Source: Eledone cirrhosa
Lineage: Eukaryota
Assembly: GCA_964016885.1 (NCBI GenBank)
Contig: CAXHJY010000492.1
Coordinates: forward strand, 3,171 to 67,170
Direction of reading: 5' to 3'
DNA length: 64,000 nucleotides
This document shows positions 4,945 to 48,000 of this stretch, one piece after another; the first letter of the stretch is position 1; every line of letters begins with the position of its first letter. Both the position numbers and the translations under genes were made by a program. Below the pieces are notes generated by a model. That model saw nothing but the letters and a program-made list of their open reading frames with translations. It was not told where the DNA came from and searched no databases.

Positions 4945-5011
4945 TTTTATCTGATGAAAACACAAATATTATTGCATGATGATGTTTGTTTTTGAAATGC
5001 GCATAATAAAA
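4945..5011 (+). ncRNA. Type I hammerhead ribozyme motif (minimal stem III)
   Basis: TTTTAT, CTGATGA (4951), a long stem II, GAAA (4994), TGCGCA, TA (cut after 5005), then ATAAAA. Stem I is TTTTAT/ATAAAA; stem III segment is palindromic. Confidence 0.75.
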
Positions 5012-6411: not shown

Positions 6412-6515
<104 letters not shown>

Positions 6516-6799
6516 TTCAAGAGTAACCAATCTTAAAGAGAGAGATGGAGATAGTAGAGGAGAAGAGAGATTGGTGAATTAGTTAGAAGCCAAAGCATAA
6601 AGGCATGTGCTCAATGTGCAATATGCAGTTGAAGGCAGCTAGGTGGCTGGGTTCATGCAGAGGTTAGGTGCACAGAGCTGGAAATATTCATTAGTTAATC
6701 AAAACAAGACCACAAATTTCACAAGGAAGACATTATTAAAAGATTTTCAACATATTTTAGTTTGATGTAAGGAATGAAGAGAATAATAATAATAATATT

Positions 6800-9301
6800 A
6801 ATAATAATAATGTCCGTTTACAATTGTTTCGCTACTCCATATAATATTTCTGGATCAAATGATTATAGATCATTATTGATCTGATTCAGTTGAAAATAAT
6901 TAACATAGGTAAAAATAGACCAGCTCATCGGAACTTCAAAAGGAATATAAATTAAAATAAAGAAAGAATGTTACATGAATGTAATTTTCCATATATTGGT
7001 ATTTCACTATGGTGTCCTGGGTATATCTATTGTCTGCCATAGTCGAGCAGTATTCTTCTGTCGAGGCTGCATTGTGTGAGATCTGCCTATGGGTAACAAG
7101 ATGGCCGCCAATGGACATATTTACCTTACTAATTAGAGGGTGGGTTCAGGGGAAGTAACTCCACGAGAGATTAGAAATTGTGGGTAGTTTATAGTTAAGA
7201 AGTGCTAATTTTTTAATTTTTTAATTGAGAGACAATGTAAGGGAGGTAACTTATAATTATCTAAGTTAGCTATAACTATTTAACTTATTAGCTACAAGTA
7301 AAAATGGGGCTAGATGACTATGTTGGGTCAAATATTCTGTTGGCGAAGGAATTAGCCCTTCGATGTTGACAGCTAATAGTTACCTCCGTTCTATCGTTAA
7401 TCGGTAGAGGTCGTGATAAAGTTATGTAATATGCTTCGGTAAGACAGAGGTCACAAGAGTTTCTTCGTCCATTGTTGGGCCCTAGCCAAGATATCCCATG
7501 TTAGTGATTGTTCAATGTTGGTTAATTTAAGGTTTTTAATGAGCCTAGCCAGAGATGTCGAACATCTGTTGTTAAGGTCTCGGAAGGAAAAAGAGTGCGC
7601 GTTATAGCGTACCTTAAAAGGGTTAGAGGTAGAGCGAAGCAGTTTTAACCGTGTACCTATAAACTATATTGGGTGTCAGGCAATGTCCATTTAGTGGGCA
7701 TGCATTAGGGTAACGGCAGTTGCAGTTACTTCTGCGGTTAGTGAGAGTAGGATTGTTTAATCTAAGCGGTTGGTCAGTGCTAGAAGGATTAGATGGAGGA
7801 GGTGTGCTACTGGAGTAAGTATTGGTGTAGTGGCGTGGTGTATTTGATGGGGTGGTGGTACCGCGGTGTGGGAGTTATACTGTCTTAGTTTATGATGGTT
7901 ATTGAATTCGATGTGGCTAGCTAGGTTAGGTGTTGTGGAGAATGAGATTTTAATGTTATTTTTATTAAAGAGTTTGTAATATGTATGGTTGGGGGGGGGG
8001 ATGTTTAGATAGGATAGAGAAGAAGCGTTTAGGGATATTAGTGGCTAGATTGGATGAGAATGGGGGGGTTAAGCCAGGTGATATTTCTAGGCCTATTCCT
8101 TCTATGGGTTCTAGTGGAGTTGGTAGGGGGCTTCAGAGGGTTATTATTACCTGGGCATTTGTTATTTGTCATCCTATTGCTCATTCCCATTCTAGGGTTG
8201 ATTTTTAGTTTGCTACTTGGAGTGGGAAGCAGGCCACTGCTACCATTAAGGTTCCCTGTATAAGTGCTGTTACTGCTAAAATTCCGGCGTATCTGGCTAT
8301 ATGCTAAGGTATTTCTAGTTCTAATGTTAAGTTTATTATGGTTGTGGTGAAGTGCTGTGTTATGGCATTTAGGTATGTAGTAAATGGACTGTACATAACC
8401 AGATTCAGAAAGAGCCTTATTATAATATGCCGCATGGTTTATAAATATCTCCTCATTTGCTGATAGCATGGAGATCCTATACGAGATAGATTTGATTACT
8501 GCTCTGATGACTGCCGGTGGGTGGTTAGAGTGTGGCTAATATATGTAAGTATTTCACCTGGTTTATAATAAGGGTAATAGAGGTTATTGTTAATATCTAG
8601 GGTAACGTCTAGGAAGTTTACTATTTATGGTTCGGCTGGATGGTGATAGAGAGACCGTTATTTTTAAATAATCTATGTAACTGTTTTTTGAGCAAGTCAA
8701 TGCCTCGATTAGTGAAATTGTGGAATGCAAATAGGGCGTCGTCCCTATATATTCCGCCTTGCAAGGGTTAGATTTCAGCTCTGATGTTATGTAATAGGTA
8801 AATTCCAACTAAATCGGTGATTTGCGCAGAGTCACTTGAGCCCATCGTGATGTCAAAGTTGTCTGTTCTGTCTTTTCTAGTCCAGACTGCTCCGTTGAAT
8901 TCAATGATGGTCTGCCTAGCCATAAGTATGATGTCAATCTCATTATTGGTTATGTCAGAGTTGGTGCTGGCTAGGGTTAATGCTTTGTTGAGCAGTGTCG
9001 GGGTTATTGAAGCGTAATAGCTGTCAATGTCAAATTGGAGGAACCTCATAGATTCCTTGGACCTTAGATCTGAGAACCATCTAATGACTTGGCCGGTGTT
9101 GGACCACAGCTTGTAGGTCATATCATCTCGTAGCCCAGGGATGATCCTATCAAGGATGTTCTTACTGATACGACCCAAGTCGGGTGTGGTTGGGCTTATA
9201 AGTCTAATAGATGGGTTCTCTATAAAGTTTGGCTTGTGATCCTTGAGAGAAAACCTTGGGGTTGTAGGTACATAAGGGTGGGTAAATCTATCCAGATGCA
9301 A
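6800..9301 (-). mobile_element. Decayed, 5'-truncated Penelope-like element (RT, Cys-rich linker, GIY-YIG endonuclease remnant) with a terminal hammerhead
   Basis: Minus-strand peptides across frameshifts: KDHKPNF..IRLISP, FLQFDIDSYYASI, FDITMGSSDSAQITDLVG, GIYRDDAL (about 8735-8758), HSNHPP, RNITWLNPP, CNCRYPNACPLNGHCL, FKVRYNAH. Confidence 0.88.
6816..6934 (-). ncRNA. Hammerhead motif with a CCGAUGA core at the 3' end of the Penelope-like element
   Basis: Minus strand: GTT, CCGATGA, GCT..(about 88 nt)..AGC, GAAA, CAATTG, TA, AAC. Stem I is only 3 bp. Confidence 0.55.
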
Positions 9302-9394
9302 GTCAAACTAAAATATGTTGACAATCTTTTAATAATGTCTTCCTTGTAAAATTTGTGGTCTTGTTTTTCTTAACTAATGAATATATATATATAT

Positions 9395-30041: not shown

Positions 30042-33000
30042 ATGGATGTGTTAAGAGTAGGATGTTTGAATGCACGTGGCCTGGGCTCAACTTGGAAGCA
30101 AGCAAAGCTTCTAAATGACCTCAGGTCATGTAGTATAAATGTAATGGTTATCTGTGAGACTCGAATCAGCGTCGTGCGGCAGCTGGCCCCCACCTTCGAT
30201 GACTTTGAGGTGCATGCATCTCTCTGTCAACCTGGAGGTGGGGGTGGGGTTGTCGTACTGCTGCAAAAACACCTGGGTCTTGCCGTACAGGTTGTGCACT
30301 CGGACCCGGAGGGTCGTTTGTTGGTGCTAGACGTTGGCAGTAGTGAAAGTGCGGCCTTGAGACTGGTCGCCGTCTACTCCCCTTTCGGAGCTGAACGGCC
30401 CGACTTCTTCCAGCGTTTGGAGACTTTTCTGGGAACGTCGCGTTCCCTGCTTCTAGCGGGGGATTGGAATGACATCCTGGATGCACGTTGGGACTATGCA
30501 GGAGCATGTCCTAATAGAGGAGGGTGTAACAGCCTCAAGGGGTTACTCGACCGTTTTAACTTGGTCGATAGATATCGACTAGATTTTCCAACTGTGCCTA
30601 CCTGGACTTGGAGAAACCACAGTGGTCAATCTAGATCGTACTTAGATAGATTCTTAGTTAGAAGTAAGGATAGGGACATATTAAGCTGTTCAGAAATGCG
30701 CACGGTTGGCTACACGGATCACAAATTAGTGACCTGCGTTGTCAATCTCGAGAAAACACATAGACAGGGTCCCGGTTACTGGAAACTTAATTTGTCTTTA
30801 CCGGCAAAAGAGACTTACAGAAACCGGATTAGCAGATTAGTTAAGGAGAGGTTGACGGGTGCAATCGTCAACAACCGATGGTGGGCATCTCTCAAAAGAG
30901 AGATTAGAACAGAATCAATAAGTTATAGCAAGATGTTAGCTGCCGATAGGAATAGAAACGAGAAAGAATTAACAGGTAAATTAGAAGAGGCAATCAAGAG
31001 CGAAGATGTGGCCAGAGTGCTGGCATCGAGGACGGCCTTGAACCAGTTTTTCGATGCAAAGCACGAAGGCTGCGTCATTCGAAGTAAAATACGTGCTCTA
31101 GGTAATGAGGGGGCCAAAGCCGTTGGATGGGCCCGCGTGACAGAAGCTAAGAGTGGAAATCGATCCACCATCCGGTCGTTGCAAGACGAAGATGGACGGG
31201 TGATCCGGGAGCCTAAGCAGATGTGCGAGGCCTTTCAAAGGCACTTTGCCCGATTGTTCGGGGGAGGCGAGGGTCCAGGCGGGGGCGTGGATTTCGGTCC
31301 ATACCTCGACGGCCTGCCGCGTCTCTCGAACGAAGAGGCAGAGTCCTGCGAGGGACCAATCTCGGCTGATGAGATCGGAGATGCGCTGAGCCAATGCAGC
31401 AGACGCAAATCTCCAGGTCTCGATGGTATACCTTACGAACTTTATTTAGCAATGCCGGTCTTCTTCTCCGAACTCCTCGAAGCGGTCTACTGCAATTGGC
31501 AGCAGAACGGGAGAATTCCTTGTTCTGTAGCCAAGGGCGTAGTCACGCTGGTGAGGAAGGACGAGAACAAGGGGGATAATATAAATAATTTTCGGCCCAT
31601 AACCCTGCTAAACACAGAGTTAAAGATTTTGGCCAAGGTGTTAGCAAAGAGGTTGGCGCTTGTCGTGGGAGGCCTGGTGGGAGATGCGCAGACATGTGCT
31701 ATCCCATCCAGGTCCATTCACGATAACCTCCACCTCATGCGATACATCATAGAGAGGGTTGGCAACAAACCCGGCTTCGGTGGGGCCCTGATCAACTTAG
31801 ATCAGTCTAAGGCCTTCGATAGGGTCGACCATGGTTACCTGGATTCGGTGCTAGCGGCGGCTGGGTTCGGTCCTGTTTTCAGAGGCTGGATCACTGCCTT
31901 ACATAGCAACCACATCTGTTCTAGGATCAAGGTGAACGGCTACCTTTCGAAGCCGTTCGAAATCACACGATCCATTCGACAGGGGTTCCCTCTCTCCTCC
32001 CTTCTGTACGTATTGACTCTCGAGCCTTTACTGAGGAAGTTGGAGTTGTTGCAGGGTATCCCCCTGTAACCAGGATTGAGCAAAGCGGTGTCGGCCTACG
32101 CCGATGACGTAACAGTAATGGTATCGACCGACTCGGAGATCGAGGCGATCGGTACCTTACTGGAGGAGTACGAAAAGTTGTCAGGAGCGAAACTGAACCG
32201 GGAAAAATCCATCGGGCTGCAACTCGGAACGTGGAGAGGCAGACCGATGCCTCCTGACGGTGTCGTCGGACACTGGACGGAGGGCCCGGTAAAGTTGCTT
32301 GGGGTCTGGTTTGGACCGGACCTCCAGGTGGAAAAGAACTGGAACGAGGTTACGAACAAGGTGTTTGCACTAACCCAGAAATGGGCCAAGTGTAAGCTGT
32401 CCCTAAAAGGCCGGGCGGAGGTGGCGAACATTTACATAGCGTCTGTCACTTACTACCGCCTGACTGTCGTGCCTTGCCCTAAGGAAACACTCACCACCAT
32501 GGAACGCATGCTCTTCCAATTTCTTTGGAAGAAGCGTCCTCCTATGGTGAGAAGATCCATCTGCTGCCAACAACCTTCGAAAGGAGGGCTGGGGATGCCG
32601 TGGTTGATGATGCGTAGGCACGCATTAAGGCTACGGCACCTACAGGTATTCCTCACTGGTCAACCGGTGTGGGCTCCGTTCGTGAAACGAGCCTTTCCGA
32701 GACTCGTCTCGCTCACCGAGCTACAGTCCTGGGTCAAGCAAAGATCCGGAAAACTGGGAGACTGGCACACTGAGTGTGCTCAGGCGCTCAGAGCTCTCTG
32801 GCAAGCGGGCCAGGCCATCGGTGGAGAATCCACCTCAGCATTCTATAGAGGGCTGGTGGCTAGCAGGGGCGATGACACCCTTGGAGAGTCGCTGGACATG
32901 GAAGAGGACGAACTGGCCAGCCTGTTCGGTAGGACTTTCGGCCCAGGACCAATGGACAACTTCCAGAAGTCACTGGCCTGGCAGTGCTACCGGGGGGCTC

Positions 33001-33479
33001 TACCCGTTCGAGAGAGGCTCTACAGACACGGGCGCCCGGGCAGGGATCCCTCAAAAAAGATTTGCCCTAGATGCGTGCGTCACGAAGAAACCGTTGCGCA
33101 CGCATTGGTGCAATGTCCGGGCGTGGCTGATCTGTGGGGCTACGCCGAACAACTGCTGTCGCGGGTGGCGCCGATTAAATTGACCGCCGAGTCCGTGATG
33201 ACAATCAAACCGCCTCCCCTCTTCACAAAGGAAGCAAAGGCGGTTTTTCTGTGCGTAATAGCCATGTTGAAAGAGGTTGTTTGGTGGACACGATTGAAAG
33301 GTCTGAGGTCAGGCAACTTCCTCTCTGGCCATAGTCTGGTCTACTTCTTCCGATATCACTTCGGAAGAAGGATAAGAATGGAGAGAGAGGTGCTTGGCCA
33401 CAGGCAGTTTTATGAAAGGTGGGTGATAGTGGCGAGAATGGCTCGTGTAAATGGGCCTTCTCTGTATACCATCCTGTAG
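30042..33479 (+). pseudogene. LINE ORF2 (APE endonuclease, RT, CCHC) broken by one in-frame TAA at 32067-32069
   Basis: LNARGL, ICET, AGDWN, SYLDRF, TDHKLV, SPGLDG, NFRPITLLN, DQSKAFDRV, RQGFPLS, AYADD, CPRC-X8-H-X4-C. The two track ORFs are in the same frame. Confidence 0.93.
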
Positions 33480-33694
33480 GTAAAGAAGTAAAGGAGAGGG
33501 GAGCACCTTCTCCATGTGCTCCCCGGGCAAAGGATTGCACACTTTTTCGGGGGGGTGTGCAACCCCCATCACGTCCCCTCCCTTTTGAGGTTATTTTCGA
33601 TTATTTTCATGTTACACCCTTTTTACTCGATTATATGTAAACTCCCCCTTTGTATTTGTCCCTTCTTTTTATGCCTTTATGGTAAATAAAGAAA

Positions 33695-33744
<50 letters not shown>

Positions 33745-33782
33745 AGACACACCACAACAGAAACACAAACCATCCATCTCAC

Positions 33783-33829
33783 TTTTACTCTTTTGATAAT
33801 CATAAGAACTGTGAAACCGGTAAAGTAAA
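33783..33829 (+). ncRNA. Minimal hammerhead motif with a U3:A8 core in a roughly 135-bp module between (TA)n tracts
   Basis: TTTACTCTT, TTGATAA (33793), TCATAAGAACTGT, GAAA (33813), CCGG, TA, AAGTAAA. Stem II is weak. Confidence 0.55.
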
Positions 33830-33875
33830 TAAATATTCTTAAAAGACTCCAGTTGCATTTTCAAATTCTTTTCCT

Positions 33876-33906
<31 letters not shown>

Positions 33907-34040
33907 CGTCCTTGCCTCTATCTTTACTACGGCCCTTGATAAACCTGTTCTACATCATCCACTCTCATCCCAGGAACAGTCTTTGATAGCGCTAGTTTGT
34001 GATTTAAATTCAGGAATTTTATATTCTTTGAGTGTAAAGA

Positions 34041-34124
34041 ACCTTCTGACGAGAATCTCTCTTTGCAACGAGGGCCGTATGGCCTACGTTTTATTTTTGG
34101 GATTCGAAACCGATCGGTAAAGGT
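34041..34124 (+). ncRNA. Canonical type I hammerhead ribozyme, copy 1
   Basis: ACCTT, CTGACGA (34046), GAATCTC..GGGATTC, GAAA (34106), CCGATCGG, TA (cut after 34119), AAGGT. Confidence 0.88.
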
Positions 34125-34523
34125 AACTATAGTAGGTAAAGTCAATTTTTTAAAATTTATTTTGAAACTTTTTCATTATTTACTAAACCTTGTTTATATT
34201 TGTTCTGGCTCGTTAATTTATTAACCCGCCATTGAACCACACTGGCACTTGGTTGGACAATACATGCGTACCTTGGCGCCTTGTGCGTGAAAGGACGTAT
34301 TTCATATTACTACTACCTCCACAAACGTTGAGAACAAACCGGGTCATTCCGACTGCTGCTGATAACAGCGGTGGCTAGTTTGACCTACCTCCTTTTGCCT
34401 CTATCTTTACTACGGCCCTTGATAAACCTGTTCTACATCATCCACTCTCATCCCAGGAACAGTCTTTGATAGCGCTAGTTTGTGATTTAAATTCAGGAAT
34501 TTTATATTCTTTGAGTGTAAAGA

Positions 34524-34607
34524 ACCTTCTGACGAGAATCTCTCTTTGCAACGAGGGCCGTATGGCCTACGTTTTATTTTTGGGATTCGAAACCGATCGG
34601 TAAAGGT
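34524..34607 (+). ncRNA. Canonical type I hammerhead ribozyme, copy 2
   Basis: Identical to copy 1; predicted cut after 34602. Confidence 0.88.
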
Positions 34608-34703
34608 AACTATAGTAGGTAAAGTCAATTTTTTAAAATTTATTTTGAAACTTTTTCATTATTTACTAAACCTTGTTTATATATATATATATATATATAT
34701 ATA

Positions 34704-35433
34704 CAGGGTGTCCCAAAAGATGTGTACATACTTTGATTACCTGTACAGGCAATATTTATTAGAATGCACAGCCATTCCCAAAAATAAAATTATCTACGAA
34801 CATAATTCAATTGTATGTAAACACCCAAAAATGTTTACATGATTTAAATAATTGTTTCTAGTTTTGGCACAAGGCCAGCAATACCCCCAGTGCATTACTG
34901 GTACTTTGTTTTATCGACCCCGTAAGAATGAAAGGCAAAGCTAACCCCGGCGGGATTTGAACTCAGGCCGTAAAGGGCCATAACTCTATGCTGCAAAGCA
35001 TAGCATCCAACCCTCTACTGATACTGCCAATCCACCGCCCTTAATTTAAATAATTGTTTCTACTTTTGGCACAAGGCCAGCAATTACCGAGTACATTACT
35101 GGTACTTTATTTTATCGACCCCGTAAGGATGAAAGGCAGAGTCAACCTAGGTGGGATTTGAACTCAGATCGTAAAGGGACGTAACTACGCTGGAAAGCAA
35201 TAATTGTTTCTACTATTGGCACAAGGCCAGAAATTACCCAGTACATTACTGGTACTTTATTTTATCGACCCCGTAAGGATGAAAGGCAAAGTTAACCTCG
35301 GCGGGATTTGAACTCAGAATGGCAAGGGCCGTAACTCTATGCGTCAAAGCATGGCGTCATGCATATAAAACAGAATCTATTTTAATGCATTTTTTTGCTG
35401 TTGAAGTGTGTATACATTTTTTGGGATACCCTG
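34704..35433. mobile_element. Tc1/mariner-type MITE containing three nested SINEs
   Basis: ta|CAGGGTGTCCCAAAA at the left end and TTTTGGGATACCCTG|ta at the right end. Confidence 0.8.
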
Positions 35434-36169
35434 TATATATATTTGTTTGGTTACTTTTCTGTTGAACAATTGTTCACTATAGTTCCACATTACGGGGTCG
35501 ATAAAATAAAGTACCAGTAATGCACTGGGTAATTGCTGGCCTTGTGCCAAAAGTAGAAACAATTATTATTACTACTTTGGAAAGCGGGGTGGACTGGAAG
35601 AATCGGTAGTGTCGGACAAAATGCTTTAATGTTTTTAGTGACGATTTTCTACGTTCTGAGTTCAAATCCCACCGAGGTCAACTTTGCCTGCTATCCTTCA
35701 GAGATCGACAAAATAAAGTACCAGCTATGTACTGGAGTCGATATTATCGAATTTCCTCCCAATTACTGGCCTTGTGCCTAAATTAAAAGCTATTATTGCT
35801 ACTTTGGTTCTTTTAGTTTCACGGCCTCAGTGTGAGTGTGTCTGTGAAACATATACATATACACCAGGTCCGAACACAAAGGAACCAAACTCCCACTGTC
35901 ACTGCCTCCGTCTCTCCTCATCTCTCACTATTATGAGCAAATGGGGGGGGGCACGCGCTGGCCACGGCGCACAGAATAGAGAAGGCGTTTCCCCAGAGAA
36001 GGATAACGAGGGAGACGCGCTGGAAGAGCCATTCCAGCTCGCGAGACTCACCTGCGGGTGGAAGCCACAGACAGTGTCGTGCCTGTCAGAATGTTGAGTA
36101 TCTCTGACTTACTGAGAACGCTGATAAGCACCTCACTCTCTGTTGTAAGAACAATCGTTTTATATGATA

Positions 36170-36529: not shown

Positions 36530-37990
36530 AAATACGTCTGTGTGTGAGAGTATATGTGTGTGTATGTTTGACAGTGTGAAATACGTCTGTGTGTGAGAGT
36601 ATATGTGTGTGTATGTTTGACAGTGTGAAATACGTCTGTGTGTGTATGTTTGACAGTGTGAAATACGTCTGTGTGTGAGAGTATATGTGTGTGTATGTTT
36701 GACAGTGTGAAATACGTCTGTGTGTGTATGTTTGACAGTGTGAAATACGTCTGTGTGTGAGAGTATATGTGTGTGTATGTTTGACAGTGTGAAATACGTC
36801 TGTGTGTGTATGTTTGACAGTGTGAAATACGTCTGTGTGTGAGAGTATATGTGTGTGTATGTTTGACAGTGTGAAATACGTCTGTGTGTGAGAGTATATG
36901 TGTGTGTATGTTTGACAGTGTGAAATACGTCTGTGTGTGAGAGTATATGTGTGTGTACGTTTGACAGTGTGAAATACGTCTGTGTGTGAGAGTATATGTG
37001 TGTGTATGTTTGACAGTGTGAAATACGTCTGTGTGTGAGAGTATATGTGTGTGTATGTTTGACAGTGTGAAATACGTCTGTGTGTGAGAGTATATGTGTG
37101 TGTATGTTTGACAGTGTGAAATACGTCTGTGTGTGTATGTTTGACAGTGTGAAATACGTCTGTGTGTGAGAGTATATGTGTGTGTATGTTTGACAGTGTG
37201 AAATACGTCTGTGTGTGTATGTTTGACAGTGTGAAATACGTCTGTGTGTGAGAGTATATGTGTGTGTATGTTTGACAGTGTGAAATACGTCTGTGTGTGT
37301 ATGTTTGACAGTGTGAAATACGTCTGTGTGTGAGAGTATATGTGTGTGTATGTTTGACAGTGTGAAATACGTCTGTGTGTGTATGTTTGACAGTGTGAAA
37401 TACGTCTGTGTGTGAGAGTATATGTGTGTGTATGTTTGACAGTGTGAAATACGTCTGTGTGTGAGAGTATATGTGTGTGTATGTTTGACAGTGTGAAATA
37501 CGTCTGTGTGTGAGAGTATATGTGTGTGTATGTTTGACAGTGTGAAATACGTCTGTGTGTGAGAGTATATGTGTGTGTATGTTTGACAGTGTGAAATACG
37601 TCTGTGTGTGAGAGTATATGTGTGTGTATGTTTGACAGTGTGAAATACGTCTGTGTGTGAGAGTATATGTGTGTGTATGTTTGACAGTGTGAAATACGTC
37701 TGTGTGTGAGAGTATATGTGTGTGTATGTTTGACAGTGTGAAATACGTCTGTGTGTGAGAGTATATGTGTGTGTGTTTGACAGTGTGAAATACGTCTGTG
37801 TGTGAGAGTATATGTGTGTGTATGTTTGACAGTGTGAAATACGTCTGTGTGTGAGAGTATATGTGTGTGTATGTTTGACAGTGTGAAATACGTCTGTGTG
37901 TGAGAGTATATGTGTGTGTACGTTTGACAGTGTGAAATACGTCTGTGTGTGAGAGTATATGTGTGTGTATGTTTGACAGTGAGAAACGTC
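36530..37990. repeat. Minisatellite of 49-bp units mixed with 33-bp deletion variants
   Basis: Unit AATACGTCTGTGTGTG[AGAGTATATGTGTGTG]TATGTTTGACAGTGTGA, roughly 30 copies. Confidence 0.95.
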
Positions 37991-45069: not shown

Positions 45070-48000
45070 CACATTCTACGAGACACTGATGCTCGCTACC
45101 TCCCAAATAACCGACAGTGACTATATAGTTATTGCAGGCGACCTAAATGGTCACGTTGGACAACATTGTGACGGCTATGACGGAATCCATGGAGGCTATG
45201 GGTTCGGTACTAGAAATGAGGAAGGCTCCAGAATCCTGCGACGCAAATAACTTAACTATCTGTAACACTAACTTCAAAAAACGAGACAATCACTTGATCA
45301 CCTATAGATCGGGGGAACACACAAGCCAGGTAGATTATATCCTTATCAGAAGACGTGACAGAGTGTCTGTTGTTAACACTAAATCCCTCCCCCATGAAGA
45401 ATTCACCTCCCAACATAGACTGATAATTAGCGACCTCATAGTCAGGACGAGACGTACTAGACAGCGGAAGAGGACTATCCTCAGGAGAAAAATATGGAAG
45501 CTAAAGGACCCCATAGCCAGAAATAAATTTCAAAGCATATTACTTGACGCTTTCGACAGTAAGGAAAAGCAACTAGAGTCGTATAATATAGAGGAACAGT
45601 GGGAATTCCTGAGAGCAAACCTGCTGACGGCGGCAGACGAAGTCTGTGGCTGGAGCAGGCCTGTAGGTAGGAGGAAAGTAACATGGTGGTGGAACAGTAA
45701 GGTGGAGGAGTCAATTAAGGCCAAAAAGCAGGCTTGGAAAGCATGGCGGGATGGGGGAAGTAGAGAAGACTATCAAGTGGCCAGGAGGGAAGCTAGGAGA
45801 CAAGTGTACTTCGCAAGAAGAGAAGCAGAGGAAAGAAAGTTCAAGCATGTTCTACAACGTGAGGACCAAAAACGTGAGGTGTTCAGGATTGCCAGGCAAT
45901 GTGTCAAGGAAAACCGTGATATTGTCGGGGAGAAGTGTGTACTTAACGATGATGGCATACTTGCCATCACCGACGCTGATAAGAAGGTAGCTTGGAAGTG
46001 TCACTACGAAAGGCTTCTAAATGAGGAGAACAAATGGGAGAAAGACAGTCTCCCCCACATCGACCCAATAGAGGGACCAGCAGTGTTAGTCCAGGGTAGT
46101 ACAATAAGCAAGGCAATCAAAGATATGAAGACGGGTAAGGCGGCTGGTCCTTCGGAAATAGTTGCTGAGATGCTGAAGGCATCTGGTTCGGTGGGACACA
46201 CCATGGTCACCCGGATAGTTAACCAAGTCGTACAGAATGGGGTTGTTCTGAAGGACTGGCGTAGCAGCATCATCGTTAACTGCTATAAGGGAAAAGGAGA
46301 TGCCCTAGATAGGAGTAACTATAGAGGCATTAAATTAATCGACCAGGTCATGAAGGTCACGGAAAAAGTAATAGCGCAACTAATCAGAGAGAGAATTGAT
46401 CTAGATGAAATGCAGTTCGGGTTTGTGTCAGGCAAAAGTACCACAGACGCTCTTTTCATTGTACGACAACTACAGGAGAAGTACCTAGCTAAAAGTAAAC
46501 CCCTATACTTAGCTTTCGTCGACTTGGAGAAAGCCTTCGACAGAGTCCCCCGTTCCATTATCTGGTGGTCTCTTAGAAAACTAGGTGTTGACGAATGGCT
46601 TGTGAGAGCTATACAAGCCATGTATAAAGAAACAGTCAGTAAGGTTAGAATTAACAACGAATATAGTGAAGAGTTTAGCGTAAAAGTTGGTGTCCATCAG
46701 GGCTCTGTTCTTAGCCCCCTACTATTTATTATTGCCCTTCAGGCTATAACAGAGGAGTTCAAGACCAGCTGCCCATGGGAACTCCTATACGCAGATGATC
46801 TAACGCTCATAGCTGAATCAATGACCGAACTAGAGAAGAAATTCCAAACATGGAAGCACGGCCTAGAATCAAAAGGCCTTAAAATTAACCTGGCTAAGAC
46901 TAAAGTTCTAGTTTGTAGGAAAGAAAATAAGGCGGCAGTCCCATCTGGGAAATGGCCATGCTCAGTGTGTAGGAAAGGCGTAGGTAGAAACTCCATTTTA
47001 TGTCCCAAATGCAAAGTATGGGTGCATAAAAGATGTAGTGGGATCACAGGTAAGCTAACTAAGAACATAGATTTTACATGTGGCCGGTGCTCTGGTGCAA
47101 TAAGTAGCAGCAAGTGCCCACAAAATACTAGCTCCTTCAACTGCGCAGAGGGTTCTATAGAAATAGTGGACAGCTTCCGTTACCTGGGTGACAAAATCAG
47201 CAGTGGGGGAGGGTGCTCTGAAAGTACAGTAGCTAGAGTCAGAACTGGATGGAAAAAGTTCAGAGAGCTTATACCACTATTAGCCGCTAGAGGGTTCTCC
47301 CTAAAAATGAAAGGCAGGTTATACGATGCCTGCATACGAACAGCAATGCTGCATGGCAGTGAGACCTGGGCATTGTGTGCAGAGGATATACGCAGACTAG
47401 AGAGGAACGAAGCTTGCATACTCCGCTGGATGTGCAATAGTAATATACGTGAACGGCAAAGCATAAACGAACTAAGGAAAAAATTAGAAATAAGAGGGAT
47501 CAGATGTTGTTTACTCGAGAGAAGGCTACGTTGGTACGGTCACGTGATGCGCATGAAAGACAACAGCTGTATAACAAAGTGCAGGGCAATAAAGATAGAC
47601 GGTAGCCACGGAGTAGGCAGACCCAGAAAAACATGGGACGAGCTGATAAATTCCGACCTCACACGCTTACACCTCTCCAAGACAATGTCACTGGACCGAG
47701 ACCTTTGGCGGTACTCAGTAATAGAGAAGACCCGCCTTACCTAAATACAAAGTAAAAACCTACTACAGTCAGTAGGCATCTCTATCAAAACACCCCCCGT
47801 CCCACCAACTCCACCCCATCCACACCGCCCCTTTCAATGTAAAGTTATGTTGGTCCCACAACATCCAGGCCGAAACAAATGAGATCGTGTAGGTGTCACG
47901 ACAAAAAAACACACAGTCCACGCTGTAAATGTGGCCGTGTAGGCAACACGGTAAAAACCTCCCAGCCCCACACTGTAAATGTGGTTGGTGTTAGGAAGGG

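Follow-up and report, generated by a model that had tools for sequence, protein, structure and literature searches.

A probable hammerhead retrozyme family of 483-nt units in Eledone cirrhosa with Penelope-like two-arm insertions

Near the middle of a 64,000-nt stretch of the Eledone cirrhosa genome (hereafter the window), two direct repeats of 288 bp each hold a full type I hammerhead ribozyme. What kind of element is this, and how is it copied? Seen alone, the window copy is two direct repeats flanking a 195-bp spacer on an unplaced 67-kb contig. An earlier note on this DNA had called the repeats apparently identical, and they are identical over all 288 bp (33912-34199 and 34395-34682, spacing 483). 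The cuts it predicted after 34119 and 34602 also hold, 483 nt apart, as do the (TA)n on either side (33876-33900 and 34678-34703) and the lack of a credible reading frame: the circularised unit offers ATG-started ORFs of at most 13 aa (+) or 44 aa (-), and the RT and GIY-YIG ORF of an autonomous Penelope-like element is absent from it. The most informative feature was missing from that note, namely two inverted arms with two fixed start sites. The reading of the 288-bp repeats as terminal repeats was rejected, as they arise because a tandem array of 1.6 units overlaps itself and is accompanied by a 17-bp inverted arm. The window copy is laid out as follows.

33897-34682, no strand: whole insertion within (TA)n, a short inverted arm plus a 1.6-unit main arm (from locus comparison)
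33897-33913, minus strand: inverted 17-bp arm, ending at site B (unit 172-188); reverse complement of 34291-34307
33912-34682, plus strand: main arm, starting at unit position 276 and running 1.6 turns to site A (position 80) (from locus L070)
34041-34124, plus strand: type I hammerhead 1, predicted cut after 34119 (from motif scan and variant alignment)
34524-34607, plus strand: type I hammerhead 2, predicted cut after 34602 (from motif scan)
34120-34602, plus strand: 483-nt cut-to-cut monomer, the predicted circle (from the predicted cuts)
34130-34191, plus strand: hairpin predicted to pair unit 11-20 with 57-66, followed by a second ACCTT (68-72) immediately 5' of site A (from fold prediction)
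34195-34199, plus strand: site A, TATAT, unit 76-80, the putative reverse-transcription start (from arm ends across loci)
34200-34307, plus strand: 108-nt tail between sites A and B (from arm ends and fold prediction)
34304-34315, plus strand: site B, unit 185-196, with arm ends at 188-196, a putative second reverse-transcription start (from arm ends across loci)
33876-33896, no strand: left (TA)n target tract (from repeat scan)
34683-34703, no strand: right (TA)n target tract (from repeat scan)

The inverted arm (33897-33913) meets the main arm through a 2-nt overlap; B-type arms of this kind reach 3,381 nt at other loci. At its other end the window copy uses site A, at 34682. The tail holds a conserved predicted hairpin (34202-34237) and a second one at about 34264-34305, immediately 5' of site B. 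Folded as a circle, the 483-nt monomer has a predicted minimum free energy of -114.9 compared with -97.2 +/- 5.9 in shuffles, 0 of 40 of which were equally low.

A search of the 3.0-Gb genome gave 1,638 candidates, 40 of them scored, and 196 matches, with 97-100% identity among the 150 matches listed. Exact matches numbered 1,252 for the 3' half of the ribozyme, 1,801 for a tail motif, 616 for a sister-subfamily motif, 162 for loop II of the youngest subfamily and 467 for the hairpin of a second family (described below), with 0 in each reversed-pattern control. Copy number, which the earlier note had proposed to check, exceeds 1,000 related units. Its suggestion of a young family applies at the tip, where arrays at 40 loci are 97-100% identical, and the assembly artefact that it had considered is ruled out by near-identical arrays on many chromosomes and by the presence of the unit in public-run contigs, one of which continues head to tail across the unit junction. 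Units occur as short tandem repeats, from dimers to multimers, dispersed through the genome, and are non-coding, low in GC and free of true LTRs. The 72 distinct cut-to-cut monomers compared measured 477-487 nt and were between 60% and ~100% identical to the window unit. Unit length is constant at 477-487 nt despite 25-40% sequence divergence. A far more abundant family sharing the post-cut region, proposed from summed contig depth, was rejected, since the signal came from older subfamilies of the same retrozyme.

The 483-nt family shows all the DNA-level features of non-LTR retrozymes, a class already known from mussel, coral and axolotl (PMC7229834). Like these metazoan elements it is tandem, low in GC and non-coding, with one type I hammerhead per unit and thousands of units per genome, and it shares a weak palindromic helix III with the axolotl retrozyme (PMC7229834). 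It differs from them in unit length (477-487 nt compared with ~170-400 nt), in a long loop II insertion and in strict (TA)n targeting, and circles have been demonstrated for them whereas here the circle is a prediction (PMC7229834). The family is new, and its mechanistic footprint is unusually clear.

Each window hammerhead consists of stem I (ACCTT/AAGGT), the core CTGACGA, a 7-bp stem II closing a 39-nt loop, GAAA, a GTA site and a palindromic helix III, CCGATCGG, in the context GAAA-CCGATCGG-TA. A relaxed scan of the window returned five hammerhead matches, compared with a mean of 0.05 (maximum 1) in 60 shuffles, and stem II is longest in these two (34041-34124 and 34524-34607). The window ribozyme is undetected by Rfam at the gathering threshold and at E<=10, probably because of its long stem II loop. 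In an alignment of 18 hand-picked distinct variants, 95% of cells are paired and 10 of 22 tested pairs carry compensatory changes, a level reached by 0 of 500 shuffles in a test that relatedness among the variants inflates; slid registers gave 22-56% paired cells and at most 2 compensatory pairs. The core is invariant among the 18, a set gathered by core pattern. Covariation of this kind supports the predicted ribozyme fold.

The earlier note had pointed out that the short palindromic stem III of known type I hammerheads can pair between tandem copies. In some subfamilies the palindrome changes as a palindrome (AT to CG or TA), and a self-dimer duplex is predicted at -16.6 kcal/mol compared with -1.9 for the hairpin. 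Dimeric cleavage through the palindrome is plausible. Older subfamilies, however, have a non-palindromic helix III (CCG-ATT-CGG, CCG-ACT-CGG or CCGTTCGG), and cleavage of this type is therefore not obligatory family-wide. Among Xenopus retrozyme dimers, 1 of 9 was cleaved in vitro (preprint 10.64898/2026.07.22.740005). Folding models disfavour an active ribozyme in context. In short contexts the models give stems I and II a probability of 0.73-0.99, with helix III at only 0.03-0.13 once they form; when 90 nt of upstream sequence are included, or in the circle, stems I and II drop to 0.01-0.02 and all three helices vanish. For activity, the RNA would have to fold during transcription, form dimers or be assisted by protein. 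The alignment fold also pairs the first bases after the cut with the second ACCTT just 5' of site A, a sequence predicted to be able to pair with the 3' stem I strand of the ribozyme. Such pairing, weak in single-sequence models (probability 0.01-0.36), could block re-cleavage.

How the units are inserted is best seen in the youngest subfamily, for which 40 loci were picked for full-unit identity alone. At 29 of these, two inverted arms point their RNA-sense 3' ends outward into (TA)n. Counted from the cut, the outer arm ends fall at 80 nt for site A and at about 188 nt for site B (range 188-196), and 28 of the 29 two-arm insertions combine one A end with one B end, where independent site choice would give half (p=5e-8). 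The other 11 of the 40 loci have a single detectable arm, among them the window copy, which was scored as one-armed because its 17-bp B arm lies below the BLAST limit. In a motif sample of 95 elements from all subfamilies, 57 have one detectable arm and 37 have two (33 A/B, 1 A/A and 3 with one end elsewhere), and a further 54 elements contributed 20 two-arm insertions (16 A/B and 4 with one end elsewhere); both samples were chosen partly by tail motifs, which favours B arms. Across all 86 two-arm insertions there are 77 A/B, 2 A/A, 0 B/B and 7 other.

A second retrozyme family (L021/L036, L331-L360 and L412-L420), with units of 477-486 nt, is ~60% identical to the first and has the same helix III and A/B anatomy, with arrays of up to 7.4 units at 99-100% identity. 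It gave 10 of 11 A/B, its B site being read at 197-203. Another hammerhead recurs at 466-nt spacing in L284:168-1140, likely a third, unrelated retrozyme family.

Neither arm is consistently the longer (the A arm is so in 15 of the 28 young A/B insertions), and in 9 of the 28 both are more than one unit long. Arm junctions vary from 16-nt overlaps to 9-nt gaps. Arrays span 0.1 to 10 units, with 5' ends scattered round the unit, and in the young sample they always end at A or B, in phase; one insertion has arms of 10.1 and 1.9 units, and another arm reaches 8.8 units. Both flanks are TA-rich at 36 of the 40 loci. Sites A and B each end in a TA-type word and each is preceded by a predicted hairpin. 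A third TATAT, at unit 384, does not recur as an arm end in any of the three locus samples, and TA pairing alone therefore does not set the sites. A search for target-site duplications found a few flank matches of 34-38 nt, in periodically interrupted TA tracts. The two arms of one insertion diverge by 3.5% compared with 10.2% between insertions, and an arm's own partner is closest or tied in 18 of 31; this similarity fits one RNA or one source and is not proof of one molecule.

The anatomy reads as the Penelope signature of an inverted copy plus tail, here with a tail of 108 nt. Penelope-like elements carry an inverted 5'-truncated copy and a 30-40-bp tail at one end, and members of the Hydra clade, marked by DKT and CxCX5C, insert into (TA)n and bear hammerheads; how the inverted, tailed insertions form is stated as open (10.1101/2021.04.23.441226). 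The retrozyme shares with the Hydra clade partial tandems, the inverted 5'-truncated copy, a tail at one end, the (TA)n target and a hammerhead, but it has no ORF, a tail of 108 nt in place of 30-40 bp and a unit small enough for about ten repeats in one arm (10.1101/2021.04.23.441226). The mobilisation by Penelope-type machinery that the earlier note had suggested is supported by this insertion anatomy, with the driver assigned by clade, and we hold with high confidence that the retrozyme is moved in this way.

The Poseidon protein, an anole Penelope enzyme with a predicted dimeric form, nicks both strands of its target, extends each of them, and starts at two internal RNA sites that bound the tail (PMC11167929). 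The retrozyme resembles this system in having two putative internal starts downstream of the hammerhead, an AT-rich target and, presumably, extension of both strands (PMC11167929). The anole start sites are without homology to the cut DNA, whereas both sites here end in TA-type words that match the target, and the available text of the anole paper assigns no site-per-strand rule (PMC11167929). Taken with the anole and Hydra results, the genomic A/B rule suggests that one strand would prime at A and the other at B, and two-site priming on both target strands is rated as quite probable.

Which Penelope could supply the protein? Four Penelope families were sampled in this genome; three aligned ORFs have CxCX5C before the nuclease and two have DKT, and among the 8,000 scored at least 1,198 database relatives reached E<=1e-50, with a best identity of 39-54%; the one hit with a named source is a bivalve protein at 39%. 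Frames of 758 and 821 aa are each present as near-identical copies, which makes active Penelope elements in the genome probable. The (TA)n target is common to the retrozyme and the resident Hydra-type elements. One Penelope family has two end sites ~45 and ~135 nt after its own cut, ~90 nt apart, which account for 17 and 15 of 43 ends; at least one Hydra-type Penelope family has the same two-site design as the retrozyme.

The earlier note had also proposed to look for an autonomous Penelope sharing the repeat, and none was found in the four sampled families: nhmmer gave no match between them and the retrozyme beyond neighbouring retrozyme insertions. No coding copies were found among the motif-sampled retrozyme loci, and neither the degenerate-ribozyme repeat at 33742-33876 nor the ribozyme variants led to a coding element sharing retrozyme sequence. 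The driver is likely a Hydra-clade Penelope RT, assigned by clade. Vertebrate retrozymes have been linked to Penelope terminal repeats, and like the present family they co-occur with Penelope-like elements and form dimers and multimers (preprint 10.64898/2026.07.22.740005). That link is one of terminal-repeat similarity, whereas here it is one of insertion anatomy and no similar terminal repeat was found in the four families sampled; the available text of the preprint contains no mollusc, tail or priming analysis (10.64898/2026.07.22.740005).

If a Penelope enzyme copies the retrozyme, is the template a circle or a line? Most arms cross the cut (100 of 122 in a first sample and 55 of 69 in a second), and their templates were therefore uncut or re-ligated. 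At the 40 young loci, 29 variants occur in every unit of their locus that covers the position. Of these, 14 are private to a single locus, 8 being shared by at least 3 units and 3 by both arms. Diversity is 0.24% within these loci compared with 1.3% between them, and of 102 variants segregating within arrays 7 recur at a second locus, 6 of these in T/A runs. Because private variants are fixed in all units of single arrays, each array was likely copied from one unit, likely a circle. Some variants occupy part of an array (e.g., 2 of 7 units in L043); exchange after insertion therefore occurs and could also homogenise arrays.

The foremost alternative keeps the element and the two-site priming, and makes the template a linear, mostly uncut read-through array transcript, with a ribozyme that trims 5' ends or acts late. 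Uncut RNA is the main template of the anole element, for which cleavage is unnecessary for insertion (PMC11167929), and the folding models described above likewise leave little active ribozyme in context. Also in its favour, 10 of 122 arm 5' ends in the first sample fell within -2 to +4 of the cut (p=1e-5; one was a BLAST break), some of them after crossing an earlier cut. This pile-up was not replicated in the second sample (2 of 69, p=0.32, one a BLAST break) and was dropped as evidence of cleavage, and several of the cut-proximal ends overshoot the cut by 1-4 nt, consistent with a pause at helix III on intact RNA. Whole-array private variants and the rarity of shared mosaics need a one-unit bottleneck. 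Furthermore, linear copying with truncation only shortens arrays and therefore cannot regenerate long ones, yet arms of 8.8 and 10.1 units exist. We regard a linear template as unlikely and lean towards a circular one.

Could the arrays instead have grown in place, a Penelope terminal fragment having inserted as a monomer and then expanded by unequal crossover in the manner of a minisatellite? This route is discussed in the preprint (10.64898/2026.07.22.740005), and the variants common to a subset of units in an array would suit it. It is nonetheless improbable, as 9 of 28 young A/B insertions have more than one unit in each arm, array ends are always in phase at A or B, the unit stays at 477-487 nt across 25-40% divergence and the ribozyme stems covary. 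Scarcely credible is a small LTR retrozyme or TRIM with the 288-bp repeats as true LTRs, or an assembly artefact, either of which the window copy with its two direct repeats, 195-bp spacer and unplaced 67-kb contig might suggest on its own, but which is already refuted by the genome-wide copies and disagrees with 5' ends spread round the unit, arrays of 0.1 to 10 units, a public-run contig that runs head to tail over the unit junction and a ribozyme of type I where LTR retrozymes carry type III (10.64898/2026.07.22.740005).

The best explanation, which we consider probable, is thus a retrozyme of 483-nt units whose circle is copied by a Hydra-clade Penelope RT from both target strands. Arrays would first be transcribed, the hammerheads would free 483-nt monomers and a host ligase would close them. 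The Penelope protein would then nick both strands of a TA tract. On a single RNA, one 3' end would start cDNA at A while the other did so at B, each aided by a few bases of TA pairing. Both enzymes would next travel round the circle for a variable distance. The outcome is seen in DNA: A-arm/B-arm insertions of up to ~12 units in which the two products lie back to back and overlap slightly where they meet.

A further-reaching form of this scheme, put forward tentatively as a real possibility, is that Penelope-type elements in general integrate by programmed twin priming, in which a protein dimer would hold one RNA at two structure-defined sites, one for each nicked strand; in the present family the RNA would be the ribozyme-made 483-nt circle, with two RTs rolling on it at once. 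Whether retrozyme circles are templates for a Penelope RT has been stated as an open question (PMC7229834). Were programmed twin priming true, the genome would directly record animal retrozyme circles as transposition templates, and the puzzle of the Penelope inverted repeat plus tail would come down to one rule. The 483-nt family supplies counts on the two open questions (77 A/B, 2 A/A and 0 B/B, plus the one-unit bottleneck), and a direct in vitro test is possible, given its 483-nt substrate, on which two start sites are mapped, and the young Hydra-type ORFs alongside it.

Inverted two-arm insertions with fixed A/B ends set this family apart from the metazoan retrozymes of PMC7229834, the main text of which does not contain the word "inverted", and inverted arms or paired start sites for retrozymes are undescribed in the available text of that paper, of the preprint (10.64898/2026.07.22.740005) and of a review (PMC7761336). 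A squid genome paper merely counted hammerhead matches (PMC6962438). In the literature on cephalopod retrozymes and hammerheads and on Penelope twin priming or circular templates (the last from 2020 onward), in a coverage lying mostly outside subscription papers, repeat databases and supplements, no description of the 483-nt family or of the A/B rule was found.

The surroundings of the insertion are rich in other mobile sequences. Just upstream, a near-complete LINE (28056-33695, +) has an ORF1 of 650 aa and an endonuclease-RT ORF2 with one stop at 32067-32069, and it ends in (TA)n. We take it to be Tx1/L1-like. It was rejected as the driver, the TA target being the sole common feature and the retrozyme anatomy being of Penelope type. 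Between the two lies a piece (33742-33875) of an older non-coding family for which there are 1,843 candidates, with a hammerhead-like motif that is degenerate and a pair of TA-linked ends ~45 nt apart. On the other side, 34704-35434 is an element with 39-nt terminal inverted repeats in TA, presumably of the mariner-type MITE kind, which holds several copies of a very abundant 150-bp SINE-like repeat.

Further off, the window contains a Hydra-type Penelope copy (approximately 6512-9380, -), 5'-truncated and frameshifted, with a mutated hammerhead, (TA)n ends, an inverted 5' arm and a tail of 174 nt; its family gave 26,312 first-look candidates. Hammerhead motifs of other families lie at 4951 (+), 5900 (+) and ~38389 (-), the one at 4951 giving a match to the terminal repeat of the Penelope family with the 821-aa frame. 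An 865-aa open frame at 45147-47744 (+) encodes another LINE-type reverse transcriptase, and 36530-37986 is a minisatellite of 49-bp units with 33-bp variants.
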